Counted from the stretch's first letter, positions 33,126-60,699 are shown. The stretch: DNA of 64,000 nt from a virus (IMGVR_UViG_3300037455_000467:1-64000); one strand, 5' to 3'. The notes: generated by a model from the letters alone, not told the origin. A program made the numbers and translations.

Positions 33126-33423
33126 TAGGGTAGAGTGTAAAATTTGTTTTATAACTTTATGCTTTCTTATACATTATACCATCGATTGTAATATAATCAT
33201 TCTGGTTGTCATCTTTTAGTTTTTCTTGAATGCTGTCAAGAATACTTGCTGGATTATCTTGGTCATCAGAATCCACTTCTTGACCACGACGATAACCAGC
33301 CTCGTATGCAGCAGACAACATAAAATATAAACCAATTCCTGCCCCAACAATACTACAAATATTATAAAATTTTCTTAACATAATTTCTTAAATCCTTTCT
33401 AAATTTTTATACACTCTACCCTA
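33126..33423. repeat. 14-bp perfect inverted repeat flanking gene 33157-33381
   Basis: TAGGGTAGAGTGTA at 33126-33139 and its reverse complement at 33410-33423. Confidence 0.85.
33157..33381 (-). CDS. Small membrane protein (cassette gene)
   Basis: 74 aa, N-terminal TM. Confidence 0.65.
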   Translation of the reverse strand: MLRKFYNICSIVGAGIGLYFMLSAAYEAGYRRGQEVDSDDQDNPASILDSIQEKLKDDNQNDYITIDGIMYKKA

Positions 33424-33447
33424 TAAAGTAGATAGTAATTTTTGCGA
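33420..33447 (-). promoter_or_regulatory. CGCA-type phage promoter motif
   Basis: Sense TCGCAAAAATTACTATCTACTTTATAGG. Confidence 0.65.
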
Positions 33448-34951: not shown

Positions 34952-35088
34952 GATGAAACTCCCGAGAAAAATATAAATAGTTATTTTATTTACCTACCAT
35001 CCCTACCGTACATGAGTGCTTTGGCTCCACTCCATCTGAAGTACGCCCTCCTCTCCTAAGCCTCGTCGTACTCTACAAACACTCTACT

Positions 35089-35115
35089 CTATTATACAAG
35101 TGGGAATTTTTGCGA
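35089..35115 (-). promoter_or_regulatory. CGCA-type phage promoter motif
   Basis: Sense TCGCAAAAATTCCCACTTGTATAATAG. Confidence 0.65.
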
Positions 35116-35116: not shown

Positions 35117-35153
35117 AAAATATAAATCCCCGGAAATTCAACGATCTCCGGGG
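35117..35153 (-). terminator. Intrinsic terminator with a TTTATATTTTT tail
   Basis: CCCCGGA/TCCGGGG stem at 35128-35153. Confidence 0.75.
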
Positions 35154-35164
35154 AAATATAAATA

Positions 35165-36061
35165 CTATGAAGCGGCCTGTAAATATCTAATAGATTGTCT
35201 ATTCTTACTATTTGTACTAGATTTACGATTAGTAGAAGATTTTGGAGTTGATGTAGTCTTACGCTGAGTAGTTGCTGAGGTATTAGATTTCTTAGTTGTA
35301 GTTGAAGAATTTTGTTTAGGTTGTTCATCAGTATTAAATTGTTCATAAACAGCTTGAGCAGCTTTACGAGCCTCACGTGCTTTACGTACTTCATTCATAG
35401 TCTCTACAGTACGTCCACCATTACGCTCTTCTTCTGCCATCTTCTTTTTAAGGTCATCGATACGTTTCTTAGCAGCATCAAGATCTTGCTTAGCTACGTC
35501 ACGTGCTTTAGTTTTTCCATACTTATTAATAAGATTATCATAAACTTTCTTACCAGTAGACTCGTAATGTTGTTTAGATTTTACAGAACCAGCATCAGCT
35601 GCTTGTTTAGCTTGACGTTGTCTTTGATATTGTTCTTCGCGCTGCCTATCGCCACGAGATTCATATTCTTGTTTTGCTTTACTTCCAGCATCAGTTTCTC
35701 TTTTAAAATTATTAGCATAGTCTTTAACACGATCTTTATATTCTTTAGCAGACTCTGCTTGTTTCTTCCATGAATCAACATAGCTATCCATCATTTTATT
35801 TTGAGCATATAAAGCTGCTCCGCCTAAAGCTACACTTCCTGCTACTAATCCAGCAGTTTTAAGAGCTGCTTTTTGTGACTTAGTAAGACCTCTACGCTTC
35901 TTACTAGTCTGTCGATCATGGACTTTACCTTTAGCAGTTCGAGTACCATCAGGATTCTGATATCTACGAACTCCCCATTTCATACCTTTTATGCCGTGAT
36001 GAGAAATATAATCTACATCAAGTTGATCAACAAATGTTGGAGTATAATACACTACATACAC
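35165..36061 (-). CDS. HHG-leader protein with a basic coiled-coil body
   Basis: YISHHGIKGMKWGVRRYQNPDG. Confidence 0.8.
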   Translation of the reverse strand: MYVVYYTPTFVDQLDVDYISHHGIKGMKWGVRRYQNPDGTRTAKGKVHDRQTSKKRRGLTKSQKAALKTAGLVAGSVALGGAALYAQNKMMDSYVDSWKKQAESAKEYKDRVKDYANNFKRETDAGSKAKQEYESRGDRQREEQYQRQRQAKQAADAGSVKSKQHYESTGKKVYDNLINKYGKTKARDVAKQDLDAAKKRIDDLKKKMAEEERNGGRTVETMNEVRKAREARKAAQAVYEQFNTDEQPKQNSSTTTKKSNTSATTQRKTTSTPKSSTNRKSSTNSKNRQSIRYLQAAS

Positions 36062-36064
36062 CTC

Positions 36065-36550
36065 CTAAATATCAATAGTTCCAAGAGATTCTTTACTATA
36101 GGCTTTACGACCACCAGCCCATACGCCATTCTTAACTTTATTCATATTATAGTCAGGCGATGCTAATGCTGAATATACTCCAAGTTCTCCACGCTTAGCT
36201 ACAAATCTAACTACTCGTCCAGATGGTGCTGGAATATCCTCAACTCGTTCATTCATTAGTCGAGCCATCTCACGATTATATTGATTGATAGCATTTTTGC
36301 TCATGAGTCCACGACTAGTATAATATCCACCTTGACGCTGAAGTTGTTTATCATACTGCTTCATGTCTTTAGCAACAAGTTTTTCAGTTTTCTTTTGAAT
36401 CTTATTAGCATTTCTTTTTGCCCATTTAGCATCTTGCTTTTGCAAATGCTTAACACCAGCAGGAGTTAAAGATCCGTCTTCATTTTGATATCGTCTAACG
36501 CCCCACCGTTGTCCTTTAATTCCGTGATGCATTAAATATAAGTCATTCAT
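36065..36550 (-). CDS. HHG-leader protein
   Basis: MNDLYLMHHGIKGQRWGVRRYQNEDGSLT. Confidence 0.8.
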   Translation of the reverse strand: MNDLYLMHHGIKGQRWGVRRYQNEDGSLTPAGVKHLQKQDAKWAKRNANKIQKKTEKLVAKDMKQYDKQLQRQGGYYTSRGLMSKNAINQYNREMARLMNERVEDIPAPSGRVVRFVAKRGELGVYSALASPDYNMNKVKNGVWAGGRKAYSKESLGTIDI

Positions 36551-36552
36551 AG

Positions 36553-37450
36553 CTATAGCATACCAACCATTCTTCTTCCAGCAGTATATGCTTTACTTTT
36601 ATATACTTCACCCATAGTAGTACGATATGATCCTTCAGATATAATAGAATCCATATTAAATACTATAACAGGACTTTGCGCTTGAACTGAATTATATAAT
36701 GCATCATTCGTGTCTAATACCGCATCGTATCCATTTTTTTTTTAATTCATTAAAAAACTTAGCTCTTTGCGTAGCAACATCTTTTGCATATTTTTTATTA
36801 CCTCCAGCATCAGATGGAATGGCATGATTAAATATTGGATAAATATCATTTAAATCTTTATCTGTCGGAATATAATTTGGATCTTTTAAACGATCCATTG
36901 CTGCTCTTCCACGAGCATATCCTGGACTAATTTTATGAACGCCATCTTCAAAACGAGCTCTAAGCCTATTTTCATCAGTTACAAAATTATAAAAGTCTCT
37001 ATCATTTTCATATAATTTTCTAAAAGCTTTTGCTCCACTATCTTCTGATGCAACTTTAATTTCTTTATTCGCTTTATTTTGAATAGAATATTTATAAAAA
37101 TTACCAGTTCCTATATTATTTCCATTATCATCATAAATTGGCATAGGTGCTGGTTTATCAAAAAATTCTTTGTAATGATCAATATCTGCTTTTGTATGCG
37201 ATGCAAAAAACATGTCAGTATTTGATGTACGATTTTTATCATAAGATAATGTTTTAAAAACAGTACCTTCTTGTAATACATTATCATAATGTTTTTTATT
37301 ATATCTACTATATTTTTTCTTGCGTTCTGCTTTTATAGCTTTTTGTTCTGTTTTACTATATGATCCACCTTTTAATGGATATGGTGGTCCATTACGTGTC
37401 CCCCATTTTTGACCAAGAATTCCATGATGCATTAAATATAAGTCATTCAT
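36553..37450 (-). CDS. HHG-leader protein frameshifted at an A10 tract (36734-36743); possible ART-like cargo
   Basis: MNDLYLMHHGILGQKWGTRNGPPYPL from ATG 37450 (AGGTGAG RBS). As sequenced it stops at 36704; with A9 it continues KKNGYDAVLDTND...IVFN to a stop at 36553. Confidence 0.7.
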
Positions 37451-37454
37451 ACAC

Positions 37455-37859
37455 TCACCTATTTTCTTCAATGCCATAAACATTATTAATAGGATCGTAT
37501 GTTAAATGTTTATCTTTTAAATTCATTTTAGACATTAATTTTTTAACACGTTCAATATCTTTTTGATTTGTTTTAGCCCACTTTATAGCAGCATCTTCTG
37601 TTTGTTTCATTTGTTTTTTCATGTATGATTTTTTATATAATTGTGGATATCGTTTAGCTTGAGCTTCCATTCTACCACGAGCAGATGCATTATCTAGCAT
37701 TTGTGCATTAGAATACGCTTCTCGTCTAGCAGCTTTATTAAGTTTTTTTAAATATCTTTTTTCACCAGCAGGAGTAAGAGTCCCATCATAGTTTTCATAG
37801 CGACGTACACCCCAATGCATGCCTTTAATCCCATGATGCATTAAATATAAATCATTCAT
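37455..37859 (-). CDS. HHG-leader protein
   Basis: MNDLYLMHHGIKGMHWGVRRYENYDGTLT. Confidence 0.8.
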   Translation of the reverse strand: MNDLYLMHHGIKGMHWGVRRYENYDGTLTPAGEKRYLKKLNKAARREAYSNAQMLDNASARGRMEAQAKRYPQLYKKSYMKKQMKQTEDAAIKWAKTNQKDIERVKKLMSKMNLKDKHLTYDPINNVYGIEENR

Positions 37860-37886
37860 TGCACCTCAATTCAAACTTCGAAAAAA

Positions 37887-37913
37887 CATAGAGCTAGTAA
37901 ATTTAGCTCTATG
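37887..37913 (-). terminator. Intrinsic terminator
   Basis: CATAGAGCTA/TAGCTCTATG stem followed by TTTTTT. Confidence 0.75.
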
Positions 37914-37922
37914 CTATAGGAT

Positions 37923-38240
37923 TTAATCCAACTTAATGTATGGATACTCACGAGTTATAAAATCTTTAACAATGACTCGCAGGCAGTCACAATCAGTTTT
38001 ATCCTCAAGAATTTGATCTAAATCTTTCTTAAGAAACAGCTTTTTAGTTTCAAGCTCCATTATTTTATTCCGTCGACAAGTGATCTCATCTTTAATATCA
38101 CTAATTTGCTGATCGTAATTATCAATCATAGCTTGAACTTCATCGGCTTTCTTTGAATAATAGTCAAATTCCTTACTGAATTCACCATAATATTCAACTG
38201 CAACATCACGTGTTGATTTTACTCCACTCATAAATATCAC
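37923..38240 (-). CDS. Coiled-coil protein (cassette gene)
   Basis: Own promoter, AGGAGG RBS and terminator. Confidence 0.65.
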   Translation of the reverse strand: MIFMSGVKSTRDVAVEYYGEFSKEFDYYSKKADEVQAMIDNYDQQISDIKDEITCRRNKIMELETKKLFLKKDLDQILEDKTDCDCLRVIVKDFITREYPYIKLD

Positions 38241-38261
38241 CTCCTTTTAACGGATGTCAAT

Positions 38262-38289
38262 CCTATAAAAGAGGCAGTATTTATTGCGA
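38262..38289 (-). promoter_or_regulatory. CGCA-type phage promoter motif
   Basis: Sense TCGCAATAAATACTGCCTCTTTTATAGG. Confidence 0.7.
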
Positions 38290-38538
38290 AAAATATCAAC
38301 TATTTAGTTTTATCTTGAAGATCAGAAAGCTTATGGAACAGCATTTTTCTTTTGAATACTAAATCACAAATTGCCTTGTCGAGATTCGAAATATCTTCTT
38401 TAACGTTTCGAATCTCATCAAATATAATAGATTTGTCATCAGACTCATTATAAGCCATGATTACCACTGCTCCTTAAAATTGTAAAAAGAAAGTAATGGT
38501 AATTTCTACCACAACTCTCTTTTTTGGTTAAATCATTG

Positions 38539-38751
38539 TTACATCCATAACGGATATCTCATAATTATATTGTATTCTTCTCTAGAAAGCAAGCTCAATA
38601 GATAAGATGCTTGCTTATCATTGATCACACTCCAACATCCCATAAAATATCCTTCGCTGTAAGTCTTTGCAGCTTTGATATCAATTTTGTTGTTGAATGA
38701 TCGCCAATTAGCAATCATTCTTTGAACTGCTTTCTTTTCTCTTCTTTTCAT
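38539..38751 (-). CDS. Hypothetical protein (cassette gene)
   Basis: 70 aa, AGGAGG RBS. Confidence 0.65.
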   Translation of the reverse strand: MKRREKKAVQRMIANWRSFNNKIDIKAAKTYSEGYFMGCWSVINDKQASYLLSLLSREEYNIIMRYPLWM

Positions 38752-38790
38752 ACTTCCTCCTAAATATCCGTGAGATCCACATTGATCTCT

Positions 38791-38817
38791 CCTATAAAGA
38801 GGTAGTATTTATTGCGA
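38791..38817 (-). promoter_or_regulatory. CGCA-type phage promoter motif
   Basis: Sense TCGCAATAAATACTACCTCTTTATAGG, nearly identical to 38262-38289. Confidence 0.7.
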
Positions 38818-38823
38818 AAAATA

Positions 38824-39096
38824 TCACACAACATTTCTAGAAACAATTTTCCAATCAAGATAACGATAACAATTATCGTATACTTCTTTATAACAAATAG
38901 ACACTTGCATTTCATCTGGATTTATTATTACATCTCTAATATGCATTAGGCCTTTATTATGTATGTAAAAAAAGCCATCTAAATCTTTTTCTATATGAAG
39001 CCAAGCATCTTCTATTTTAAAATATAAATTGGGATAACAAACTGAATCCATGTCAAATCTTAATACAGATCGTTTTTTAATTTCGAAAACTCTCAT
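38824..39096 (-). CDS. Hypothetical protein, tandem paralog A
   Basis: Shares LYFKIEDAW and IINP..MQV with 39102-39374. Confidence 0.65.
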   Translation of the reverse strand: MRVFEIKKRSVLRFDMDSVCYPNLYFKIEDAWLHIEKDLDGFFYIHNKGLMHIRDVIINPDEMQVSICYKEVYDNCYRYLDWKIVSRNVV

Positions 39097-39101
39097 AACT
39101 A

Positions 39102-39374
39102 TTATCTAACCTCTCTATGAATAATATCAAAACAGGTATATTGATAATAATCATAATAAGTTTCTTTATATATAATACATACTTGCATTTTAGTTGGATT
39201 AATTATAATATTATGAATATGAATGGCGCCCATATCATGACTTCGAAATTCCATCTCTAAATGCTTACCAATTTCAGTCCAAGCATCTTCTATTTTAAAA
39301 TATAAATACAAATCACGGTCACTAACCTCGTATGATTGCATTACTTTACGTCTCTTAATTTCCCAAACATCCAT
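39102..39374 (-). CDS. Hypothetical protein, tandem paralog B
   Basis: Shares LYFKIEDAW; 29-bp identical DNA at 39001-39029 and 39279-39307. Confidence 0.65.
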   Translation of the reverse strand: MDVWEIKRRKVMQSYEVSDRDLYLYFKIEDAWTEIGKHLEMEFRSHDMGAIHIHNIIINPTKMQVCIIYKETYYDYYQYTCFDIIHREVR

Positions 39375-39403
39375 GATTTCTCCAGAATTATTTAATCATA
39401 ATT

Positions 39404-39967
39404 TTATTGATTCTTTCTAGAATATCCATATACCGACCATTCATCATTGCTTTTATCAGCTTCATATTCAAAACCAACTTTTTCAGCAATATGAGTAGAG
39501 CCAGTATTCTCTTTATAAGCTCCCCAGCCAAGATAAGTAGCACCATATTTGTCTGCATTTTTATCAAACCAGTTGACGCCTTGCTGAGCTAATTTTAATG
39601 CTCGTCCCTGACCTCTATAATTAGGATCAGTACCGACAGCTACAGTTAAATGACCTTCACGAGTTGTTGTCATAATATCAAGAAAAGCTACTGGAATATC
39701 ACCATCTTTTTCTAAAAATCGTTTAACAACATACTCGCCTTCTTGAAGTGTTAAGAATTCGTTAGATCCTTCATCATCACCAAGAAGATATTTATCTTTT
39801 TTGGACATAGAATTATAGATACGATCTACATCATTTTTAGTCTTAGCAGCACGCTGCATTCGTCTATGATAAATACCTTCTTCAGTCAAAGATCCATCAG
39901 CATTCTGATAACGTCTAACACCCCATTTCATGCCTTTTACGCCATGATGAGCTAAATATATATTCAT
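39404..39967 (-). CDS. HHG-leader protein with a C-terminal GNAT acetyltransferase domain
   Basis: YLAHHGVKGMKWGVRR; VGTDPNYRGQGRALKL; ENTGSTHIAEKVGF. Confidence 0.8.
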   Translation of the reverse strand: MNIYLAHHGVKGMKWGVRRYQNADGSLTEEGIYHRRMQRAAKTKNDVDRIYNSMSKKDKYLLGDDEGSNEFLTLQEGEYVVKRFLEKDGDIPVAFLDIMTTTREGHLTVAVGTDPNYRGQGRALKLAQQGVNWFDKNADKYGATYLGWGAYKENTGSTHIAEKVGFEYEADKSNDEWSVYGYSRKNQ

Positions 39968-40039
39968 GAGTAAAAGTCCTTACTAAAAATATAAAGCTAG
40001 CCGTAAATTTCTTCACAGCTAGCCTTATAGAAACTAACT

Positions 40040-40336
40040 TTAATCCTCTTGAGAGAATTTTTCTTTATACTTCATTACAGCAGTTCGCTCCATGAACATC
40101 TTAGCACCTTCATGGGTGAGCCTATCTATTTCAGATTTAACGACACAACGATCTCTTTTTAAAGTATCAAGCTCGTTCTCTAAGGTCTCAATAGCATCCT
40201 CAAGCTGATCGAACTTAATTTTGAGTTCGTGTTTCTCATCATCTTTAGCATTGACTCGTTCATGAATATCATCTAAGATCTCTTCACAAAGTCCAACTAT
40301 GTGATAATTTATACTCATAACTAACCTCCTCTCCAC
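40040..40336 (-). CDS. Coiled-coil protein (cassette gene)
   Basis: Own promoter and terminator; resembles 37923-38240. Confidence 0.65.
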   Translation of the reverse strand: MERRLVMSINYHIVGLCEEILDDIHERVNAKDDEKHELKIKFDQLEDAIETLENELDTLKRDRCVVKSEIDRLTHEGAKMFMERTAVMKYKEKFSQED

Positions 40337-40355
40337 AATAGTCTTTCTGTCAGTT

Positions 40356-40383
40356 CCTATTATAGAAGAAGTTAGTTTTGCGA
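40356..40383 (-). promoter_or_regulatory. CGCA-type phage promoter motif
   Basis: Sense TCGCAAAACTAACTTCTTCTATAATAGG. Confidence 0.7.
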
Positions 40384-40384
40384 G

Positions 40385-40423
40385 AAAAAAGAAAAGGTGG
40401 TTAATGATTCAACTAACCACCTT
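40385..40423 (-). terminator. Intrinsic terminator directly upstream of the next promoter
   Basis: AAGGTGGTTA...TAACCACCTT stem followed by TTCTTTTTT. Confidence 0.75.
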
Positions 40424-40441
40424 AAATCTTAGAATATAATT

Positions 40442-40921
40442 TTAGATTGACGGTCGAACCAACTGGCTCATTCCATTAACAAGTCTTTGAGGAACTGTAC
40501 TATTCCTTTCAAGACCAATCCAGAAAGCTAGAATAATACCATATGTTACAATGCCACCCATTTTTAACATGGTTTGCGAATATCCATCTTGTCTCTTGTT
40601 TTGCGCTTCTATTATCTGAAGCTTTATTTTGTCTTTTTCAGAACTTCCTTTCTCAAGGGAATTCAGAATATCACTTAAAACTTTCAGATTATTTGCTGCC
40701 ATTTGATACTCAGGTGTATCAGCATGCAATGTTGACATTGTACTGATGGCATTAACCATCTCTTCCTTTATTAGTTCTTTGATTTTTTCATAATCTAATT
40801 CACTCTCATCTTCGTTAATAGATACAGCAACTTTGGTTACCGATCCATTATTGTATCCCAAAAGATTTAATAATGTTGGTGAATTTACCATACCTTTTCC
40901 TTTCGTCCTAGGAAGAATCAT
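40442..40921 (-). CDS. Membrane-anchored hypothetical protein (cassette gene)
   Basis: 159 aa, C-terminal TM. Confidence 0.65.
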   Translation of the reverse strand: MILPRTKGKGMVNSPTLLNLLGYNNGSVTKVAVSINEDESELDYEKIKELIKEEMVNAISTMSTLHADTPEYQMAANNLKVLSDILNSLEKGSSEKDKIKLQIIEAQNKRQDGYSQTMLKMGGIVTYGIILAFWIGLERNSTVPQRLVNGMSQLVRPSI

Positions 40922-40939
40922 TCTCTTCGATTCTTCTCT

Positions 40940-40966
40940 CCTTTATAGAAAAAGTATTTTTTGCGG
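40940..40966 (-). promoter_or_regulatory. CGCA-type phage promoter motif
   Basis: Sense CCGCAAAAAATACTTTTTCTATAAAGG. Confidence 0.65.
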
Positions 40967-40972
40967 AACTTA

Positions 40973-41902
40973 TTATAACAAATTATTATACTTCTGATCA
41001 TTACCAGTTGTACGTAATCTCTCCCAATCAGGCTCTCCATACTTTTCAACATATGACTTGTAACCAACAAAGTCCTTACCATACCGTCTTAAATTACTTT
41101 CAAGAACAGCCTTGGTAGCTTTATCATAAGTCTTTTGGAATTCTGAAGCACGCTTCTTTTCGCGTTCAACTTCAGCCGCTCTACGCTTATTCTCTGCAGC
41201 AGCTTCTTTACGAGCCTTATTACGCTTCATGCCCCAATAATCAGCTTGCTCTCGTGCTGAATCTCTGTTTCGATTAATATCACGTGCACTAAATGTTGTG
41301 TCTTTATTTACAACCTTAGCTTCTGGACCATTATATCGTCCTTCGCGCATATTATTAACGAATTCTTTACGAGCATCTGAATCTCGAACTGATTTCATAG
41401 CATCAGATATCTTAGTTTTTGTTGCTGCTTTCTGCTGATTCTTAGCAGTCTTCATATTGTTATAATTAGCTCGTGTAAATTGATCTGCTATAGCTTCTCG
41501 TTCTTTATCAGTATAACTATAGAAACCAGGATTTTCTTTAATTGCTTCATTTGCATACTTCTTAGCAAGATTATACTGGTGAGTATCGCTTACTTTATTA
41601 GCGGCCATATTAGCAATATAAGCAGTAGCAAGAACCCCACCAGCAATTGCAGCACCTTTAGCAATTTTCTTATAAGTCTCTTTAGCTTCATCTGATGTCA
41701 ACTTTTCTTTAAGAGCATCTCGCTTTTCTTGTTTAGCAGCTTTACGATCTTGACGATTCTGCCAATATTTAGCATAGCGTTTCTTACCAGCATCTGTGAG
41801 TTTTCCTGCAGCAGTTTCATATCTACGGACACCCCACTTCATGCCTTTTACGCCATGATGAGCTAAATATAAATCATCAGTATAACTTGGTAAATACTCC
41901 AA
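40973..41902 (-). CDS. HHG-leader protein with a basic helical body
   Basis: DDLYLAHHGVKGMKWGVRRYET. Confidence 0.8.
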   Translation of the reverse strand: MEYLPSYTDDLYLAHHGVKGMKWGVRRYETAAGKLTDAGKKRYAKYWQNRQDRKAAKQEKRDALKEKLTSDEAKETYKKIAKGAAIAGGVLATAYIANMAANKVSDTHQYNLAKKYANEAIKENPGFYSYTDKEREAIADQFTRANYNNMKTAKNQQKAATKTKISDAMKSVRDSDARKEFVNNMREGRYNGPEAKVVNKDTTFSARDINRNRDSAREQADYWGMKRNKARKEAAAENKRRAAEVEREKKRASEFQKTYDKATKAVLESNLRRYGKDFVGYKSYVEKYGEPDWERLRTTGNDQKYNNLL

Positions 41903-41917
41903 AATATAAACACCTCC

Positions 41918-42991
41918 TTATCTATTAATTCCGAATTGATTCAACAAGTTATTAGTTGCTTCTATTGTTGATTGATTAAGATTACCAATCATCTCAGAAA
42001 TATCACCGGATTTAACAGATTTAGCAGCATTGTAAACTGTTTTAGCATCTTGAATAGTCTTTGGAGCATTCTTTATTTTAGATACTGTAGTCTTAGCTTT
42101 TTCAAATTGCTCAGCAGTATCATCAGTATTACGTTCTCTAGTTCTACGTTGTTCATACCGAGCTTGTTCTTTTGCTTTTTTAGAAGCTTCGTTCTTTTCT
42201 TTAACAACTGTAGCAATACTTTTTGCGGCATTACCAGCAGTATTCTTAACGGTGTTGACAGCTTTTTTAGCATTATCGCTATTTAAATACTTGCTAGTGC
42301 CGTCTTTAATCGTAGAAATTTGCTGTGCAAAAATATCACTAGCAGCTTGTTGCTTAGTAGCTGCTGCTCTAGCTTTAGAAGCCTTAGCATTAGCTTCTTT
42401 AATAGCATCAGAAGCTCGATGAGATGCGGGTTCGACATTCTTTGTTGACTTCTTAGCAATATCAGCAACTTTACTATTCTTAAGCTTACTAGTAGCTGCC
42501 TCAATAAGTTGTTTATCCTTACCAGTTTTGTGAAGAGCATAAGCAGTTCCACCAACTAAAGCAGCTCCTGCAGCAGCTTTAAGTCCCTTTGAAACAATTC
42601 CAGATTTAGGAGATCTATTTGAAGCAACTGCTTTCATGTATTTATTGTGCTTAGCTTTTCTACGAGCACTATTAGCTAAAGATGCTCCAGCACTAGCAGC
42701 TGTAGCTCCTGCAACATATGGAGTAGCTTTATATAAATATGGATTCTTTCTAACAGCAAGTGTAGCAGCTGTTCCAACTACACCTTTAACAGCTGCTTTC
42801 TTTAAAGACTTGGATGACTTTTTATCATACTTGCTAGCTAGTTTAGCATACTTCTTTCTACCAGCAGGAGTAAGAGTCCCATCATAGTTTTCATAGCGAC
42901 GTACACCCCATCGCATACCTTTGATACCGTGATGAGCTAAATATAAATCATCTACGTATGAAGATGAGTACTCCACATTTAGTACCTCCAA
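41918..42991 (-). CDS. HHG-leader protein, K/A-rich helical body with hydrophobic patches
   Basis: DDLYLAHHGIKGMRWGVRRYENYDGTLT; starts 6 nt after the holin stop. Confidence 0.8.
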   Translation of the reverse strand: MEVLNVEYSSSYVDDLYLAHHGIKGMRWGVRRYENYDGTLTPAGRKKYAKLASKYDKKSSKSLKKAAVKGVVGTAATLAVRKNPYLYKATPYVAGATAASAGASLANSARRKAKHNKYMKAVASNRSPKSGIVSKGLKAAAGAALVGGTAYALHKTGKDKQLIEAATSKLKNSKVADIAKKSTKNVEPASHRASDAIKEANAKASKARAAATKQQAASDIFAQQISTIKDGTSKYLNSDNAKKAVNTVKNTAGNAAKSIATVVKEKNEASKKAKEQARYEQRRTRERNTDDTAEQFEKAKTTVSKIKNAPKTIQDAKTVYNAAKSVKSGDISEMIGNLNQSTIEATNNLLNQFGINR

Positions 42992-42996: not shown

Positions 42997-43197
42997 TTAC
43001 TTATTATTGTAAGCTTTAGTACTAATCCCAAGCAATGCACCCATAAAAGTGTCGATTGCAGTAATAGTACCAACAACTTCATTACTATTAGGAAGTCCCC
43101 AAATAGCTGCCAAAGTGAAATATAAAGTTCCTAATGCAGGGAGAACAATCATAGCTATAAATTTTAAAATATCATACGTTTTATTGTCCATTAGCAT
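42997..43197 (-). CDS. Holin, Dp-1-like
   Basis: NKTYDILKFIAMIVLPALGTLYFTLAAIWGLP...ITAIDTFMGALLGIST. Confidence 0.85.
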   Translation of the reverse strand: MLMDNKTYDILKFIAMIVLPALGTLYFTLAAIWGLPNSNEVVGTITAIDTFMGALLGISTKAYNNK

Positions 43198-43444: not shown

Positions 43445-43589
43445 CTATATACATAGTGCCTAATGCTATAAGCACTAAGGTTCCAAAAAATAATACAATA
43501 TCATACTCTCTAAATCTAGCAACAAGACATAATACTAATGCTATTGCTAAAAATATAAGCAATAGAAACCAAAATTTTAGAAGTATCAT
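43425..43589 (-). CDS. 54-aa two-TM protein (holin/antiholin candidate; not in the ORF track)
   Basis: ATGA overlap with the endolysin stop; MILLKFWFLLLIFLAIALVLCLVARFREYDIVLFFGTLVLIALGTMYIVGFVFL. Confidence 0.55.
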   Translation of the reverse strand: MILLKFWFLLLIFLAIALVLCLVARFREYDIVLFFGTLVLIALGTMYIVGFVFL

Positions 43590-45232
43590 GCAGGTTGAAC
43601 ACCAGCTCCGGCATCAAGAACTAGACCAGATTTAATGCTAGCAATCCTAATATTACCATCAGAAGACTCAATGAGTGCCCAGCGCTGAGCATCAGTACTA
43701 TTGCTCGGATGAATCCAAATACCAGTCTTATTCTCAGTGCCGCCATTAATAACGTCAAGTCTCATGCCAGGTGCGCATTTAGGCTCAAGCTCGCAGTACG
43801 TACCGAAAGCTTTAGGAACCCAAATAAGTTTCCAAAGCTGTCCGTCAGAGTTGAGTTTCTTCCATACTCGAACTGGCGTATGATCATCAGATAAAGCATC
43901 TCGAACATCAAGATACATGTCTCGACCAATATTACGAATTCTGAAATATCCATCATTATTGTTGATGAATTCGAAGTGTTGCATCGGAGTATTATTAGTC
44001 TGATAGATCTTAGTAGAATATCCATCCGGAATTACTGGAGTAGGTTCTGGCGTTGGCTCAGGTTCAGGAGTAGGATCTGGTTTTGGAGCAGGCTTAGTAC
44101 CATACTTAGGACGAATAACATATCGAATAGTACTCAATGCACGAGTTTTATTTTGAACCGAGTTAGAGACATTACCTTCAATTGTCTCGACATATCCGCC
44201 AACAAGTGAACCCTTAGCAAAGCCAATATGATCAGTTGTGGCAGTACCCCAGTTCCAGTCAAATATCAGAATGTCACCACGTTTAATACTAGTACGCTCA
44301 ACAAGAAGCTTATTAGCGCCTCCATTAAGAGCAAGGTCAGTATTCTGAGACGGGAATCCTGCAACTTCAACACCAGCCTTATTCAAGACCCAACTGACAA
44401 ACATGCAGCACCACCAAATCTCAACTGATGGTCCTGCCATCCAATCTTCACCAGTTATTTGAGCCATCCAACGACCATACTTAGATCCGCGCTCAGGATC
44501 ATTAGGAGCATAATATCCAAGCTCGCCTTCAGCAATGCTAATAACATCATCAGCTGTTCCACCAGAGCTAGGCACAGTCTCATCCTCCTCATATGATGTA
44601 TCGCCATTGTTAATACGACTTGGATAGTCAACAACACACCAGTCAACATCATGGAAACCAGAAACATCATCATATACGATCATACCATCAGAGTAGCGCA
44701 TACCACCCTGCTGCCACATACCAATATCGCCAGCTTCATAAGGCCACTTGGCACGCCACCAAGCAATCCAGTTAGCATACTTATCGAGTTCGTTTCGATA
44801 CATGTTATTAAGCCACGCTGAGCCACCCGTGTATAGACCGGCATAATATCCAAGCTGAATCAACTTATCGCAGAAAGCTTTAATAACATCTGTAAGATTA
44901 CGAGCAGGAAGAGCAAACTGACGATTGTCCTCTACATCCATGTAACACGGGAGATCGTATTTACGACCCTTGAGAATATTGGCAAAGTGCTCAGCATCTT
45001 TTATAGCATCAGTAGTATTAGTAGAGACAGTATAATAATAAAAGCCGATATGAAGGCCCGCAGCCTTAGCGTTTGCATAATGACGCTCAAACCATGAGTC
45101 TGTGTATCGATTAAGACCAGTTTCATGTCCACCAGCTTTAATTATAACTCCCCATAAATTATGCTTCTGCTTCCATGCAGCAAGGTCAATATCAGAATCG
45201 TATTTGGAAATATCAAGTACTAATTCGTTCAT
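43586..45232 (-). CDS. Modular endolysin: GH25 muramidase, CHAP, Pro-rich linker, ricin-B-like domain
   Basis: LDISKY...IIKA...GFYYY...YMDVE (GH25); WWCCMFVSW...DHIGF...IEGN (CHAP); PKPDPTPEPEPTPEP; YLDV...QLWKL, LDV...QRW. Confidence 0.9.
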   Translation of the reverse strand: MNELVLDISKYDSDIDLAAWKQKHNLWGVIIKAGGHETGLNRYTDSWFERHYANAKAAGLHIGFYYYTVSTNTTDAIKDAEHFANILKGRKYDLPCYMDVEDNRQFALPARNLTDVIKAFCDKLIQLGYYAGLYTGGSAWLNNMYRNELDKYANWIAWWRAKWPYEAGDIGMWQQGGMRYSDGMIVYDDVSGFHDVDWCVVDYPSRINNGDTSYEEDETVPSSGGTADDVISIAEGELGYYAPNDPERGSKYGRWMAQITGEDWMAGPSVEIWWCCMFVSWVLNKAGVEVAGFPSQNTDLALNGGANKLLVERTSIKRGDILIFDWNWGTATTDHIGFAKGSLVGGYVETIEGNVSNSVQNKTRALSTIRYVIRPKYGTKPAPKPDPTPEPEPTPEPTPVIPDGYSTKIYQTNNTPMQHFEFINNNDGYFRIRNIGRDMYLDVRDALSDDHTPVRVWKKLNSDGQLWKLIWVPKAFGTYCELEPKCAPGMRLDVINGGTENKTGIWIHPSNSTDAQRWALIESSDGNIRIASIKSGLVLDAGAGVQPA

Positions 45233-51080: not shown

Positions 51081-54000
51081 TTAATTTACTTCAACATTGA
51101 CAAGCCATCCATTCCAAAAAGTTAACTCAAACCAGACATCATCTTTAGACACCCAACTTACAGTAGCCGATAATGCCCAATCTGTTTGCCTTGTTTGTCC
51201 GTTATATACTTTAACTGATCCAAACTTTAATCCATCAAGAACATCATAAGTTATTTCACCAGCCGTTATGGTATGAGCTTCTATTCTATCGCCATTAATA
51301 TATCCACTAGTAATATTATTAGCATCAAGATGTGTTACATCAATATATCTAGCATCGATTTCTCCGCCTCGAATGCGATCAGCATTAATATAACCACTAG
51401 TAATATTATCAGCATTAATATTAGTAACATATACTCTAGATGCATCAATAGTACCAGTAGTAATATGTCCACCATCAATAACTGTAGTAGTTTCATCTTT
51501 ACTTGGATATGAAGTAGTAACGGATCCATCAGACATCTTCATTTGAGTAGCCATAAATATTACTGGATAACTACTACTATATTGTGGTCTAGAAATAGTC
51601 CAAGTATAGCTTGATGGAGTAGTTGAATCATTTGTAACCCAACTAGATGGCATATAATTATTATTAATATATGATGCACTGGTTCCACTACCAGCTCTTA
51701 AATATATAGTTTGAACTGCTGATAATGAATCAATATTTTTAATAGCATTATTAATCTTATCTAATCCTAATAATGTAGTTCTAACATCTCCATCATCATA
51801 TAATGTTTGAACTGCTTGATAAAGATAATAACTACTAGATAATTGAAAAACATACGTAGTCCAAGTATCATTATTAGCACTTGTATTTGATACCCAATAA
51901 CTAGGTAAACTTGGAGTAGAACTATAATAACTTCTATAATAAACATATTGAACATCGGTTATAGCATCTTCTTTTTTAGTATAATTATTTATTCCTTGGA
52001 AATTGGTAACACTAATATGCTCAGTATCAAGTTGTGTTGATGTAATAGAATGTGTTAAAATATGTCCACCGTCAATAACAGTTGTAGTTTCATCACGTTT
52101 TGGATTAGTAGTAGTTAATGATCCATCATTATATAATGTTTGAGTAGCTACATATAAATAGGGGTATGAAGAACTATATTGAGGTCTATAAGTAGTCCAT
52201 CTATTTTGATAACCAGTTTCATCAGTTATCCAATAAGTTGGAATTTGGCTAGAACTAGTAATTATATTACCTTGATTACTAGAAAAACTTTTATAAATTA
52301 TTTGAGTTTTATTAGCATTTTCAGATTTTTTAGAATAATTTGATCCATCTTTAAGTGATCCAACTGTTATTTGATTAACTGCAACTCGTGCTGCATCAAT
52401 CGTACCAGTAGTAATATGTCCGCCATCGATTACTGTAGTAGTTTGATCTTTTTTAGGAGTAGTACAATTTATAGTACCATTTGCAAACTTAGTCTGCTTA
52501 GCAACAAATAATACAGGATAATTACTATTATACTCAGGTCTTGTGCTAGTCCAAATGTTCTGATTACCAGTAGTATTAGTGACCCAACTAGTAGGGGCAG
52601 CCATAGAATTAGTACCGGACACTGCAGATTTGTAAATATATTGATAATCATTAACCGTAGACATAATATCGGCTTTATTATCATCGATATCATCTACTCT
52701 ATTATTTAAACTAGTAAATGCTGTATTACCAATAAGATTAATTCTATTAGCGTTAATTGTTACATTTTCTGGCGATTGGTTAATCATGGAAATGATTTCA
52801 CCTTTATCAGTTTTTGCAGAAACGACTGACATAATATTATCACTAGTAAGCTTAACATAAGCTTCTGTAGATTCAACTATTGCATCGCCAATTTTACGCA
52901 TATAATTTTCAGTATAATCATCACCATCTTCTGGAGCAGCAGTCCAGTCTGTAGCTTTACTTCCTATCTCAAACTTCATACCACACACATAGGCTTTATT
53001 ACTACCATAAAGTCTAAGAAGAATATAACGATTAACTTCGGAATAACTCTCAGTACAGAACCATCTAACCCAATACTTTGTCCACTCTCCATTTAACTGA
53101 ATATTAGCTTGTCCATTATAATTATTATCGATCTCAACATCTTGACAAGTTAAAATATTAAATTTAGCTGAATTAGAATTTGAACCAAATATAACTTGTA
53201 GTGAGCCAACTCCCTTAGCATAGAATCCAAGACAATAATATTCGCCAACTTTTGGAATTATTACATTGTTAAATTTAGCAAAATCTTTATATGTTGAACT
53301 AGAAGCAGAAGTATTATCCAAATATCTAATAGCAAGATCCCTATACTTAAGTGTATCAAGAATAGAATATCCGCCAGAATAACTTCTATCATCAGATGAT
53401 CCTATAATATTGATGTTACTATCAATAAGATCCTTTCCATTACTATCTAAATATCCTTTTCCAGTAAAAGCTTGTGTATTCAGAAGGTAATTTCTACCAC
53501 CTATCTGCATATTATTAAATTCGCCTTTACTAGTATAATCTTCACTAACTCTTGCTAAAATATCACTACTTGTTTGACTAATTTCACTACTTCTATTAAC
53601 AATTTCAGTAGCAATTAATTCATCAACATATCTTTGGTTAATAGTTACAGTTTCACTAATTCTAGAAATAAAAGTCTTTTCAGTTGCTTCAATAAGATGT
53701 TGATTTTGTTCAACTCGTTCATATAAATCAGAAAGAGTTAACATATATGTATCATAATCTTCTGGAGCAGCCGTCCAATCACTCATATTATTATTTTGTT
53801 CAAATTTTAATCCATAAATAGAAGCTTTATTACCACCATATAATCTCAGCAATACATTTCTCTTTTGCTGAGATTCAATACTATCATTAGTAAGATTCCA
53901 TTTTATCCAATATCTAATCCAAGTATTAGATAAAGTAATCTCAATCATTCCATCAGAAGAAGTTCTTGTAATATTTTGAGAAGTAAGCGCCGTAATAGTT

Positions 54001-57000
54001 TCATTGTTTTGAGCTGGATAAAAATATGCTGTAATATTTCCAGAACCTTTAGCCCAAAAACTAAAATAATATGTTTTATCTATTGCTGGTTCTATAACAT
54101 TTGCATACCTTGCAAATTCGCTATACATTAAACTAGATAATAAAGTATTATCCAACTCTCTAACATAGTATCCCGAATCATTTGGAGTATTAGATACATT
54201 AGATTCTGCAAAATCTAATGCTCCATCCATATATCTTCCGATAGAAATATTATTGCTATCAAGAATTGGACTACCTTTGCTATCCGTTAAATCAATACCA
54301 GTAAACACTTTAGTATACTTTAACAAATTTCGACCATCAATATAAATATTATTAAATTCAGTTTTAGTAATATAAGTTGCGTCAATATTTGCATAAATAC
54401 CATCAGTAGCAACTGCTATAGCAGAATTACGATTAGATGCTTCTATCGATACAAGATTTTCTGTCTCTTGTTTCGTATATACACTTGACGTATCAGCTTT
54501 AAGATTAATTGCATTTGCATTCTGAGTAATATTAGTTTCGGCAGAATTAAGTCTTTCTGAAATAGTTGCAGCTTCAGTTTTAGTATAATAAGTATTACCG
54601 ACTGTTGTTTTATAAGTGTCAAGGTCTTGGTATAATTCTGAATATTTGGTCACAATATCTTGCTGACTAGCTGTACCATCATCGTTAGTTCCCATACGAG
54701 TAGTAAGATTTCTAATAGTAGCACTATTAGTATCAGCAGTTTGTTTAACTTCATTAACTGTATTCGATGTTGTAACAGTTGTGATATTAGTTTGTTGGAA
54801 TGAATCTCCAACATACGCCATAAGTTGATTTGTAGATGAGAAACTGCCATTGGTAGCAGAGCTCATAACACCGAGTGGAATATAATAATAATTATCAACT
54901 GCTACTGGAATGGTTGTTGTAAGATAATTGTTATCAGCTATAGTAAATGTATTGCCAACAACAGTACCCTTAAGATAAATTACTTTATCTTTACTTCCAT
55001 TTTGAATGATTCCATTGGAACTATAATTAATATTAGAAGCCATTAAATCATTATTATTACCTGTACTACCTTGTACAATAGAATCCCGTGAATAAAGAAG
55101 TGGATGAGATAAATTAAATGATACTCCAGCTCCAATATTCTTATAACCAGAATTTGTACCACAAATTATTCGTCCACTATTAATTGCACTTGCAGCAGTA
55201 ATATCAGATTCATATCGAGTTCTATTATAAGTATCTTCAGTCCAGTAACCAGTAGCTCTCCAATTAGTTCCATCATATGTTAAATTAATAACTGAATTAG
55301 CTTCAAACTGTGTTGTTACTCTACTATCATTAATATAAATTGGAATAGCTTCACTAAGAGTTCCGTCGCTTAAAGTAAGTCTTAAAGTAGCATTTCCACT
55401 TCCCGCATATGGAAGTTTATATGCAATACTTTTACCAACTTTAATTTCAGAATCTCTAGTTATACCAGTCCATGCTCCTGTTGAACTAGTTTGAGTTCCA
55501 ATAATATACTCAACACTTTGATCAAGAGCTGTTTCGGTAATTTCAGTAATTGTAGTAATTGTTGCACTATTTTCAGCTACATCATGAACAAGTTCATTAA
55601 AGACATTACTTGTAATCCTAGTTTCAAGTTCAGTCATTACTAAATCTGTTTTACTTTGAAGTTCACTAGTAGCTGTATCTAAAATTGGTTCAGACCACCC
55701 ATAAGTACCATCACTAAATTGATACTCATAGCAATAAAAATAATAAGGAGTACCAGGATTATAAACTGGAATAAATACATCCCATTTAGTTTGAGTTGCT
55801 ATTGGTTTGTTAGAGCTATCTAAAATATTATACTCAGAATCGTCATCTAAATATTCATAATAAGTACCAGCACCAGTTCTAGAAATATCAGTTGGTGCAG
55901 ATGGAATTGTATCATTATTACGAACAGTCCAAAGTTGAATAGTAGCTTCTATACCAACAAAATTATTTCTATATGTGTCAGATAATCCTCGATCATAAAC
56001 AACATCTGACCATCCATAAGTGCCATCAAGATACTGATATTCATAGCAATAATAGTAATATGGTTTAGACTCATCATAAGGTGGTATAGTAGCATACCAA
56101 TATTGACAAAGTATAGGATTACCATCGCTATCAAGAATATCAAAAGCAAGATTATCGGTTAAGAATTGACCATTAAGTACTGGCTGTTCGGGCTTCCCAG
56201 GAGGTGTTTCACTATCGGTGTTAATCCAAACCTGTGTTGAACTTACAAGAGATTTATTAGTAGCAGTGACTAAATTGTTATAACTTTGAATAAGACTACC
56301 TAATGAAGACTCGGTATTAGTACTCCACATCTGAATATTGCTGTCAAATTGCTGAATAGCTACAATATTATTCTCGGCAGTAGTAATTCGAGCAAGAGCA
56401 TCAGATATAGCAGTATCGCGAATTAGCTGCCATGAATAGACTCCATTAATCTTCGAAAATCGATAGTTATAACCATCATACTCGGAACCAGAATCCATGA
56501 CATAATACACATCGCCAACATGAGCATCTTTAAGAGCATCAGTAGTCCAGTCACTTGCAGGATAATTTACAAGTGTAGGAACTGCCGTACCAGTATATGT
56601 ATCAATAGCACCATCAATGCGAGAATTTAGTGTAGCTACAATAGCTTCAATTTCTTCAGCTGTATAAACTTGTTCATTGAGTGAATTAAGAGAAAGAGTA
56701 CCTTCACCAACAAGCTGACCATTAATTGTACCAACTGTAATATTAGATGCATTAAGATTATAAACCCTAATGACACCAGCATTAATTTCGCCAGCTGTTA
56801 ATTTATTAGCACTAACATCATTAATCATAGCATCTGATATAGATGCATCTCTAATTACACCACGATTAATCCATGAATTTTGTACATTTGAAATATCAAC
56901 AAGTGCATAATGTACATCCAAGTCATTAACATCTGCATAACTAATAGTCGCATTATCGATTACACCACGATAAATATGAGCATAATTGGCTTCGAGATCT

Positions 57001-58589: not shown

Positions 58590-59789
58590 TTACTCGGATC
58601 CCTCCTCAGTAATTACCATTTTATTATCTATTATTTCTATATGTTTATTAAACAATGACGAATATAACTTTAACAATCCTTCTCGTTGATCTTTAGACAT
58701 TAACTTATGAAAACCACCCATCCATGAACGAAACATATTTTCTACGTTCATGTATTCTATTTCTCCAGAATCTATTTTAGCTTTAAGCTTTCTCAGTCTC
58801 TTTCTCATAGTAGTAACCCGTTTAGGATTTATTCGTTTTATGATTTTTCCTGTATTTGTCATTGAATATTTGACTTGTAAATACTTATAAGTTGAAGATA
58901 GTTTAGTAATATAAGTCTTTTTACAATTAATATGTAATCCTAAAGGCTTACCTATTTCAACTATATTATGAAGTAAATCTAATAATTCTTTTCTAGAATC
59001 AGATATAATGTACCAATCATCCATATAGCGGCCATAGTACTTTTGTCCTCGTACTATTTTCACATAATCATCAATTCTATGCGGATAATAAATACCTATC
59101 TGTTGAGAAAGTTGATCTCCAATAGATATTGATTTCGGCATCATTCGTTTTTTAGATCTAGATTTATGTTCTTCTTCATATAGTATCTTATCAAATACTC
59201 CGTTATAAATATCATTGTATTCTTCATCAGTTAAATCGCTAACATCAACTTTAAAACTGTCAAAAATTATATCAAATATCCATGATAAATATGTATCTTG
59301 ATCTACTAAATCTAATAGTTGTTTTTTAGCTACTTCATGAAGAATATTATCATAAAATTTACTAAAATCACCAAATAATATCCATCCTTCATTACTACCA
59401 TGATGCATGTAATATTTTCTCAAATGAACTTCAAAACGTTTTCTAGCATGAGAAATACCTCGACCTTTTACAGAAGCTCCATTATCGTAAATAATCTTCT
59501 GCTGTATTAAAGGTGCTAAAATATCATCGCATAATACATGACGAACTGATCTATCCACTATATTAAAACCATCAACTCGTCTTATTCTGCCTCGTTCAGA
59601 TAAAAGGAATTGTGATTCCGGCTTACTTGTATAAGTTTGATTATCTAAAGAATCAGAAATATCGAATGCTAATGACAAAATGTTATTCCGTGCTCGTTGA
59701 CTGCTAGGCTTCCAATTACTATTAGCCGTTGATTTAAGAATGCCATCATAGATAGCATTCGGATCAGTCATGATGTCTTTGTAATTCAT
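58590..59789 (-). CDS. DGR reverse transcriptase
   Basis: GDFSKFYDNI, SIGDQLSQ, YGRYMDDW; basic C-terminus; adjacent to TR and avd. Confidence 0.95.
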   Translation of the reverse strand: MNYKDIMTDPNAIYDGILKSTANSNWKPSSQRARNNILSLAFDISDSLDNQTYTSKPESQFLLSERGRIRRVDGFNIVDRSVRHVLCDDILAPLIQQKIIYDNGASVKGRGISHARKRFEVHLRKYYMHHGSNEGWILFGDFSKFYDNILHEVAKKQLLDLVDQDTYLSWIFDIIFDSFKVDVSDLTDEEYNDIYNGVFDKILYEEEHKSRSKKRMMPKSISIGDQLSQQIGIYYPHRIDDYVKIVRGQKYYGRYMDDWYIISDSRKELLDLLHNIVEIGKPLGLHINCKKTYITKLSSTYKYLQVKYSMTNTGKIIKRINPKRVTTMRKRLRKLKAKIDSGEIEYMNVENMFRSWMGGFHKLMSKDQREGLLKLYSSLFNKHIEIIDNKMVITEEGSE

Positions 59790-59952
59790 TTATTCACCGT
59801 TCTAGTAGTATCTATCGTAATAGACCACATCGGCTTTGTCATTGATTTCGCAGTGACTACGAAAACGGACGCCCTCTCCTTCCTTGGAGCTCCAAATTGT
59901 ATCTATAGTCCCCCCTTGCGGGGAATATAAGACACAGAAAGCTCTAAGTAAT

Positions 59953-60040
59953 CAGGACGAACCCCATTAGAATTCGAAGCGTTGTTGTTGTTCGCATTGC
60001 CATTGTTGTTCACATTAGCGAAATTCGTGCCGGAAACAAC
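59953..60040 (-). repeat. DGR template repeat (TR), 88 bp
   Basis: Reads VVSGTNFANVNNNGNANNNNASNSNGVRP; 12 AAY codons; matches VR at 72 of 88 positions. Confidence 0.95.
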
Positions 60041-60046
60041 GCAAAA

Positions 60047-60532
60047 TCATAGAAGACGCCCTTTAAACAATTTCCTATCAGATTTTCTCCATGCTTTTAT
60101 TAAATGGATTTCTTTATCGAGATGCTCGATAGAATTACGAAAATAGGAAATATCAACATCAAAGACTCTTGCTACAGATTCTAACTCTGTTTTAATTGCT
60201 TGACACTTAGCCAATGCTGTATTCTGATAAGACAGACGAACATCATATTCACTTTTAAACCTTGGATAAATAATTTTAGCTCCATTAAGATCATCGATCA
60301 TTTCATTTGCTAAACGATCGATTGTTTCAGTTTTCTTAAATATAATGTTATCTATTCTATCAGAATTGCCCTCTAAATGAGCGGCATTCTCATACTTTCG
60401 TCTTAATGGAGAATGCTTAGACCTTATACCAAAATCTCTAAGGCATAAGTCAGTAAGTACTTCATGAGTTTTAATAGCATGGGACAGTACTTCCATCTTA
60501 GATGGTTTCCTGTCCCCTACATTTACCGCCAT
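60047..60532 (-). CDS. avd: DGR accessory variability determinant
   Basis: 161-aa helical protein directly upstream of TR; R...Q..AL..C...L; LIKAWRKSD. Confidence 0.85.
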   Translation of the reverse strand: MAVNVGDRKPSKMEVLSHAIKTHEVLTDLCLRDFGIRSKHSPLRRKYENAAHLEGNSDRIDNIIFKKTETIDRLANEMIDDLNGAKIIYPRFKSEYDVRLSYQNTALAKCQAIKTELESVARVFDVDISYFRNSIEHLDKEIHLIKAWRKSDRKLFKGRLL

Positions 60533-60549
60533 TTTAGAATATCAATGAC

Positions 60550-60684: not shown

Positions 60685-60699
60685 TTTTATCTCCTTTTA

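Follow-up and report, generated by a model that had tools for sequence, protein, structure and literature searches.

The MuF polymorphic toxins of temperate phages reportedly combine a head-associated N-terminal module with exchangeable toxin domains. In bacteriophage T4, a capsid-targeting sequence (CTS) is found on the internal proteins IPI-III and on Alt, and is removed by the prohead protease gp21 (PMC9026906, citing Mullaney & Black 1996); the internal proteins are basic, N-terminally processed and ejected, and Alt is a packaged ADP-ribosyltransferase (ART) (PMC9026906). Furthermore, the virion-packaged RNA polymerases (RNAPs) of N4-like and crAss-like phages are delivered to start transcription (10.1101/2020.03.07.982082; PMC13492108). 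Here, we describe a short peptide tag, recognised by the Pfam family PF23847 (DUF7211), at the N-termini of seven proteins encoded between positions 35165 and 42991 of IMGVR_UViG_3300037455_000467:1-64000. This 64,000-nucleotide stretch of viral DNA, hereafter the window, forms the first 64 kb of a virus record (80,424 bp) that derives from a bovine gut metagenome. We consider that DUF7211 is probably a two-part linear signal, i.e., a head protease site followed by a retained basic anchor, which loads cargo proteins into the phage head.

The seven open reading frames (ORFs) all exist on the minus strand and, as a preliminary description of this DNA had reported, open with a common leader, L-x-H-H-G-(I/V)-K-G-(M/Q)-x-W-G-(V/T)-R, which continues as Y-(Q/E)-N-x-D-G-(S/T)-L-T in six of the seven, ORF3 being the exception. 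The same description had suggested that the leader might be catalogued as DUF7211, and this proved right: PF23847 matches the N-terminus of six of the seven above its 27-bit cut-off (30.5-44.6 bits), while ORF3 falls below it at 17.9 bits, yet aligns column for column. The Pfam model, listed as of unknown function, spans 25 positions and omits the Q-N-x-D-G-S-L-T extension and the acidic positions upstream. Searching the phage's own genome revealed an eighth tagged gene outside the window, at genome positions 79015-79539 between the genes for the terminase large subunit (TerL) and the portal (42.7 bits). Past the extended leader the proteins diverge completely, as had been stated, with no similar pair among the eight (best BLASTP E 0.10).

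In both structure models the core tag comes out disordered or with low confidence, namely over residues 1-29 of the ORF3-family model (pLDDT <50) and residues 1-20 of the ORF5 model (pLDDT 47-61, against 90+ for the fold). As such, it is predicted to behave as a linear motif read by a partner, and the possibility raised earlier that the leader is an inseparable part of each fold was not borne out. A profile built from the eight leaders matched 33,239 cluster representatives (50% identity) at E <= 0.001 among 1.84 billion proteins, and 19,194 at E <= 1e-10. The leader, first described as N-terminal, is not strictly so. An internal position is found in approximately 10% of tags, always preceded by the acidic-L-x-H context, and the best-scoring representatives hold 2-5 tags per protein; either GNAT domains lie between the tags or the protein ends in a papain-type glutamine-deamidase toxin domain. 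Some ORFs are chains of tag-plus-cargo units. A literature search found no paper that mentions this Pfam family or its motif. When the array was compared with 50,697 phage records by megablast, no match was obtained, tblastn with the whole tagged proteins gave matches only over the tag, and searches of PDB sequences with the tag profile and with a profile of the capsid gene product described below gave no hit.

At the DNA level the tag-coding sequence forms a repeat of 51-104 nt with 60-100% identity between array members, which makes it a plausible substrate for recombination. A bovine-gut RNA-library contig from another study joins the ORF5 tag to the ORF6 body across a 34-nt tag-coding repeat (39927 / 41837); this contig reflects either natural recombination or misassembly of k-mers. 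Among public sequencing runs there was one full DNA match to the array, probably the source sample, and also a match in an RNA library, where DNA carry-over is possible.

The first part of the proposed signal is suggested by the capsid gene, which encodes an S78 protease domain (Peptidase_S78, residues 26-132), a very acidic spacer (28% D+E) and an HK97-type capsid domain (residues 368-662). All eight spacer histidines of this phage stand in the context hydrophobic-x-His-small, the last of them, F-L-A-H|G-I-E-D-I-D, just ahead of the capsid fold, and the same His pattern is present in the capsid precursors of phages 1706, ReqiPepy6 and FP_oengus. Across 46 fusions of the protease and the major capsid protein (MCP), L/M/I/V/F occupies P3 in 248 of 278 spacer histidines (89%), against a hydrophobic background of 24%; P1' is S/A/G/N/D in 91%, P6 and P5 are mostly D/E/N, and several sites, among them the site adjoining the capsid fold, are invariant columns. 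At the equivalent positions, 210 unique tags have L/I in 98%, His in 209 and D/N/E upstream, and positions P6 to P1 are alike in the 210 tags and the 248 spacer sites. Repeated conserved tripeptide sites in a removable spacer are also described for T4 gp21 (L/I-x-Glu) and for phiKZ-type proteases (PMC9026906), and by this likeness we infer that hydrophobic-x-His is the protease's own site. The internal and multi-copy tags behind acidic-L-x-H would make sense if each unit is freed by cleavage.

The second line of evidence is the position of the tagged genes in related genomes. The RNAP of this phage assigns it to a described lineage of Actinobacteria and Firmicutes phages (250 records; the RNAP lineage is described in preprint 10.1101/842583), which includes phages of Arthrobacter, Gordonia and Streptomyces, Rhodococcus phage ReqiPepy6, Lactococcus phage 1706 and Faecalibacterium phage FP_oengus. 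In 80 IMG/VR contigs recovered through the tag, each examined over +/-10 kb, the gene order is nearly invariant (RNAP - HNH - connector - tags - TerL - tags - portal - protease-capsid), and 235 of the 245 tags (96%) are found either in the 6 kb upstream of TerL or in the interval from TerL to the portal. Similarly, FP_oengus has one tagged gene between TerL and the portal and ReqiPepy6 has seven in a row there (gp15-gp21). ReqiPepy6 gp13 (L004:10681-12276) consists of a 2H-phosphoesterase (LigT-like) followed by an internal tag at residue 340, and 1706 ORF7 (L003:2501-3889) holds two DUF7211 copies approximately 140 residues apart.

In the depositors' record of 1706 (EU081845), both ORF7 and ORF75, the homolog of the RNAP, are labelled 'structural protein'. 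The plain label is given to ORFs 6, 7, 11, 12, 17, 20, 21, 71 and 75, with ORF13 as 'major structural protein', and similarity-based calls in the same record carry 'putative'. ORF71, a 'structural protein' encoded outside the head module, was considered as a further tag carrier and rejected, as it has no tag. The Arthrobacter phage paper contains no mass spectrometry.

Two relatives of 80-88 kb, found via ORF3 homologs, share the layout of the present genome: an ART-like tagged gene lies between endolysin and holin, which places it in the late cassette, and two or four further tagged genes lie behind the holin, compared with seven here. The number and content of the array thus vary at one locus between close relatives, which supports the earlier notion of swappable cargo.

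The RNAP itself (555-3362, minus strand, 935 aa) is a YonO/RdRP-like single-chain enzyme (phrog_4291, E 0 over residues 6-931) with DFDGD at residue 541 and helix-turn-helix (HTH) / sigma-70 region-4-like domains at both ends. It had been described as starting with a variant of the leader. The N-terminal motif is real and conserved, reading F-L-M-H-Y-G-T-P-R-H-S-G-R-Y-P-W-G here (residues 11-27; 3282-3332, minus strand) and (D/E)-x-L-x-H-Y-G-x-x-R-x-S-G-R-Y-P-W-G-S-G, preceded by a variable acidic stretch, in 1706, FP_oengus and almost every related locus in which the N-terminus is present; its likeness to the tag is limited to L-x-H-(H/Y)-G. Membership of the RNAP in DUF7211 was therefore rejected (PF23847 12.5 bits, 9 aligned columns), and on sequence grounds it appears to share the putative protease site and not the rest of the tag. 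Given this N-terminal half of the signal and the label on 1706 ORF75, which is 38.6% identical, a packaged RNAP is plausible, not established.

That the leader routes cargo into the capsid had been suggested in the preliminary description; this is still the best available reading, is partly supported and is sharpened here to a signal of two parts. In the mechanism we propose, the first part, (D/E)-(D/N)-x-L-x-His, would be a site of the phage's own prohead protease, i.e., the S78 enzyme fused through its acidic, scaffold-like spacer, with 4-10 like sites, to the HK97-type capsid protein. The second part, (H/Y)-G-(I/V)-K-G-(M/Q)-K-W-G-V-R-R-Y, usually followed by Q-N-x-D-G-(S/T)-L-T, is basic and predicted to be unstructured; it would stay on the cargo and hold it in the assembling procapsid, where the acidic spacer is one possible partner. 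Everything upstream of the His would next be trimmed off by the protease; in this phage this is a leader of 7-29 residues, and in relatives it comprises entire domains or preceding cargo units. Most of the cargo consists of basic proteins, of which some have membrane-type helices, and the GNAT and ART-like enzymes complete it; all would remain with the DNA inside the head and exit together with it at infection, and the RNAP, with the site half and its own G-R-Y-P-W-G segment, would probably be loaded too. Binding of the tag, cleavage, packaging of the eight proteins and their ejection are steps that we infer from these comparisons.

Several observations weigh against this proposal. The P1' residue is H/Y/W followed by an invariant Gly in the tags and small (S/A/G/N/D) in the spacer sites, so that tag and putative protease site have the non-prime side in common and not the prime side, and cleavage of the tag may be inefficient, may occur at another position or may not take place. 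A specificity for His in an S78 protease is itself suggested by the residue pattern. Because the 80 related loci were picked by their tags and cover only +/-10 kb, clustering of tags is favoured from the outset. Of the eight tagged genes of this phage, seven are placed behind the lysis genes instead of in the head module, an arrangement that is unusual for the lineage: tags stand beside endolysin and holin in only one of the 80 related loci (L009). In a profile comparison of tag and RNAP N-terminus (hhalign), the aligned segment is limited to L-x-H-(H/Y)-G (9 columns) and the match is weak (P 0.015). Promoter-like motifs are interleaved with the array, and some of its members may be made early, before procapsids exist. 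The 'structural protein' labels of 1706 reportedly come from virion mass spectrometry, and loading of the array proteins is argued by comparison and from that database label.

Three other explanations were considered. The tag could be a docking peptide for some part of the virion (portal, terminase, connector or tail lumen) rather than a protease substrate, with the cargo leaving first and the likeness of L-x-His to the spacer sites being a coincidence or a shared binding determinant. The placement of 96% of tags around TerL and ahead of the portal, the P1' residues unlike those of the spacer sites, and the structural labels of 1706 ORF7 and ORF75 would all agree with docking. However, six consecutive positions up to the His agree between tags and spacer sites, internal and multi-copy tags are hard to use without release, and the gene neighbourhood does not tell which virion part is bound, and we regard docking as unlikely. 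The tag might instead act inside the infected cell by guiding effectors and the RNAP to one hub, such as the polymerase, the ribosome, a membrane site or a chaperone. A disordered linear motif would suit such a role, the RNAP has part of the motif, and most tagged genes here adjoin the small-gene region and lie downstream of its promoter-like motifs. Nevertheless, a near-universal position among head genes in relatives would not be expected of an intracellular guide, nor would the 1706 structural labels and the match to sites in the capsid precursor, and we give it a little less credence than docking.

Finally, the array might serve lysis or superinfection control, with membrane-active holin accessories for which the tag would be a membrane or cell-wall targeting element. 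The array begins a few bases behind the holin, ORF1 and ORF6 have Gly/Ala-rich hydrophobic helices, relatives have a tagged gene between endolysin and holin, and ORF1 weakly matches the Rz-like spanin family phrog_739 (E 5.5e-4), but this last match spans only a charged coiled-coil stretch. Since most tagged proteins have no hydrophobic helix, cytoplasmic enzyme folds are found among the cargo, and tags stand beside TerL and portal rather than lysis genes in 79 of the 80 related loci, a function in lysis seems very improbable. Head loading is favoured by the head-module synteny, the shared protease-type site and the structural labels in 1706.

The array runs from 42991 down to 35165, between the holin (Phage_holin_Dp1, 42997-43197, minus strand, E 1.3e-28) and a terminator-like hairpin (35127-35154, minus strand, an 11-bp stem then a T-run) right behind ORF1. 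All but one of the eight cargo proteins are basic (pI 9.5-10.1), including K/A-rich types, and two have Gly/Ala-rich hydrophobic helices; the range of cargo outlined beforehand (GNAT, ART-like, K/A-rich) is thus upheld by a Pfam match, by fold matches and by composition, respectively. ORF7 (41918-42991, minus strand; PF23847 41.2 bits) joins the tag to a 300-aa basic Ala/Lys-rich protein (pI 10.1). Its likely start is the GTG at 42976, behind GGAGG, rather than 42991, giving the leader M-E-Y-S-S-S-Y-V-D-D-L-Y-L-A-H-H-G, close to that of ORF6, M-E-Y-L-P-S-Y-T-D-D-L-Y-L-A-H-H-G. ORF6 (40973-41902, minus strand; 44.6 bits) is a tagged basic protein (pI 9.8) with a Gly/Ala-rich hydrophobic helix at residues 83-101. 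ORF4 (37455-37859, minus strand; 38.5 bits) has a 95-aa basic helical tail (pI 9.9) and ORF2 (36065-36550, minus strand; 30.5 bits) a 120-aa basic protein of no known family (pI 10.1). ORF1 (35165-36061, minus strand; 39.8 bits), the last gene of the array, combines a hydrophobic Gly/Ala helix (residues 66-84), a K/E/Q-rich coil and an S/T/K-rich tail (pI 10.0), and matches phrog_35934, the ReqiPepy6 gp19-type 'virion structural protein' family (E 1e-5).

Two array members have known or putative enzyme folds. ORF5 (39404-39967, minus strand) joins the tag to a GNAT acetyltransferase of RimJ/RimL-like type (Acetyltransf_1, 26.6 bits against a cut-off of 20.7; Acetyltransf_3, 26.0 against 25.4; model pLDDT 90) and belongs to a conserved tag-GNAT family with 604 homologs, in which most clusters among the matches listed carry PF23847+PF13302. 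Directly downstream, at 38824-39374, are two adjacent 90-aa paralogs, which could be partners or inhibitors of the GNAT enzyme; neither these nor the small genes elsewhere in the array have a recognisable family.

ORF3 (36553-37450, minus strand; 17.9 bits) has a degenerate tag and an ART-like domain. It had been given as open throughout, which does not hold: its frame is shifted in an A10 run at 36734-36743, leading to a stop at 36704, and the +1 frame continues to the stop at 36553. Its homologs in other contigs are intact at approximately 297 aa (855 homologs in the family), and the break could stem from misassembly or be a genuine or slippage-prone frameshift. When a model of the family was compared with solved structures (VIA), nine of the ten best matches were NAD+-using toxins of the ART superfamily, with Z values of 4.8-7.0, which lie under the level that the tool rates as safe: MbcT (7.0), diphtheria toxin (6.8, 6.2), Rhs1-CT (6.2), ParT (5.8, 5.7), Tse6 (5.8, 4.8) and Tne2 (5.4); the remaining one of the ten was a chain of a cyanophage ejectosome, and below these scores fall to 4.3. 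Foldseek with the same model gave no match at E <= 0.001; its top match, a chain of the cyanophage A4 pre-ejectosome (E 0.011; Z 6.0), was too weak to be used as homology. The family alignment has invariant H, Y, S-E-D-S and R-D-F columns. Together, the model comparisons support ORF3 as ART-like at the level of fold only.

The array had been taken as late-expressed, and this is secure for ORF7 and ORF6, which should be on the late transcript as they abut the holin (gaps of 5-20 nt between holin and ORF7 and of 15 nt between ORF7 and ORF6). It does not extend to the GNAT gene and ORF4 to ORF1, which are downstream of promoter-like motifs. These motifs, TCGCAAWAAWT, approximately 15 nt and TATAGG, occur in nine copies, all of them on the coding strand and within the small-gene region between 15 and 41 kb (motif range 14504-40975). 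Three copies are interleaved with the array on the minus strand, at 40945-40975 (40965) between ORF6 and the untagged gene 40442-40921, at 38796-38826 (38816) upstream of the untagged gene 38539-38751, and at 38253-38298 (38288) upstream of the untagged gene 37923-38240; further copies on this strand are found at 33411-33447 and 35079-35115. Within the array the motifs always precede untagged genes, so the statement that no tagged gene has one directly upstream is literally right. Terminator-like hairpins lie at 40423-40394, 40029-39990 and 35154-35127, with none predicted between the 38288 motif and 35154, and from their arrangement ORF4 to ORF1 could be transcribed from that motif, so that their expression may not be late only. 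Given its sigma-70 region-4-like HTH domains at both ends, the RNAP may itself read the CGCA-type sites. A scan of the array for sigma-70-type promoters was uninformative (67 sites, compared with 55 +/- 7 in shuffles).

Every gene of the genome is on the minus strand. In order of transcription it starts with TerL, a tagged gene and the portal, followed by a 1262-aa coiled-coil protein and the protease-spacer-capsid fusion, then the tail genes, a diversity-generating retroelement (DGR), the lysis cassette, the tagged array, approximately 60 small genes, the replication module and the RNAP. TerL (genome 79523-80416) is represented by its nuclease half only; the record stops just past it, with the ATPase half missing or split off, and is nonetheless rated complete. 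The 1262-aa protein (genome 73786-77574) consists of four K/E/Q-rich coiled-coil repeats of approximately 250 aa. It matches no family, has homologs in 5 of the 80 related loci, and is possibly an internal or scaffold-like head protein. The DGR (58590-61976) comprises a reverse transcriptase (58590-59789), a template repeat (59953-60040) and a variable repeat (61127-61214) that forms the C-terminal end of gene 61098-61976, and 15 of the 16 differences between template and variable repeat fall at template adenines on the coding strand. Directly downstream of the reverse-transcriptase gene, 51081-58589 encodes a 2502-aa protein with several internal repeat families, including 75-nt tandem units at 56903-57427, which is probably a giant tail fibre or host-recognition protein. 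In the late lysis cassette upstream of the array, the endolysin (43586-45232, minus strand) combines GH25 and CHAP domains with ricin-type lectin repeats.

More broadly, and as a tentative reading that could well fail, DUF7211 may be a general and transplantable 'load, cut and release' signal throughout this large lineage of long-tailed Firmicutes and Actinobacteria phages, joining a new His-specific HK97-type protease site to a retained basic anchor, through which membrane-active proteins, the RNAP and a changeable set of host-modifying enzymes would be packed and delivered together with the DNA. Members of the lineage are frequent in dairy starter cultures, in soil actinobacteria and in the guts of humans and animals. 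If the reading is true, a phage of this kind would be free of host transcription from the first minute, and a 20-residue peptide would explain what a whole phage lineage carries inside its particle. It would also provide a function for a domain present in tens of thousands of protein clusters, a new after-His cleavage specificity for a widespread HK97-type head protease, and a pool of injected host-takeover proteins, e.g., acetyltransferases, ART-like proteins and papain-type toxin domains. Virion delivery of a YonO-type RNAP by siphoviruses would be directly testable in culturable phages (1706, FP_oengus, ReqiPepy6 and SEA-PHAGES isolates), and the tag would offer a natural means of loading foreign proteins into Gram-positive phage capsids, as the CTS does for T4.

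Compared with the described systems, the array resembles MuF toxins in placing a constant N-terminus on exchangeable enzyme or toxin domains, and MuF genes lie next to that of the portal. However, the carrier here is a 20-residue peptide and not a folded MuF domain of approximately 300 aa, no MuF domain (Phage_Mu_F) was found in any tagged protein (E <= 0.1) or in the scanned head-module proteins, and no immunity-like partner was recognised in the window. The RNAP is of the two-barrel DxDxD catalytic type also seen in the crAss-type enzyme; whereas the packaged RNAPs of N4-like and crAss-like phages are podovirus giants of 2,000-3,500 aa for which no common loading tag is known, the present enzyme has 935 aa, belongs to a long-tailed phage and is indicated as packaged by one record label only. 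Closest by descent are 1706 and ReqiPepy6, members of the same lineage that have the RNAP, TerL, portal, protease-MCP fusion and tagged genes in common with this phage, but with their tagged genes beside TerL where seven are here behind the lysis cassette; actinophage tags read H-Y-G and those of this phage H-H-G.

The T4 CTS differs from the tag in several respects: there is no sequence similarity, the putative P1 residue here is His and in T4 Glu, and the protease is an S78 enzyme fused to the capsid protein instead of gp21. Moreover, most of the conserved tag lies beyond the putative cut and would be retained by the cargo, and the tag is also found internally and in tandem. In both phages, however, one short N-terminal peptide is common to unrelated, mostly basic proteins, related phages differ in their sets of cargo, and these include an ART enzyme (ART-like here); the T4 peptide ends in a head protease site that recurs in the scaffold or capsid precursor, and the first half of the tag may be such a site. 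By analogy, the tag system would work like the T4 CTS and internal-protein system without being a member of it.

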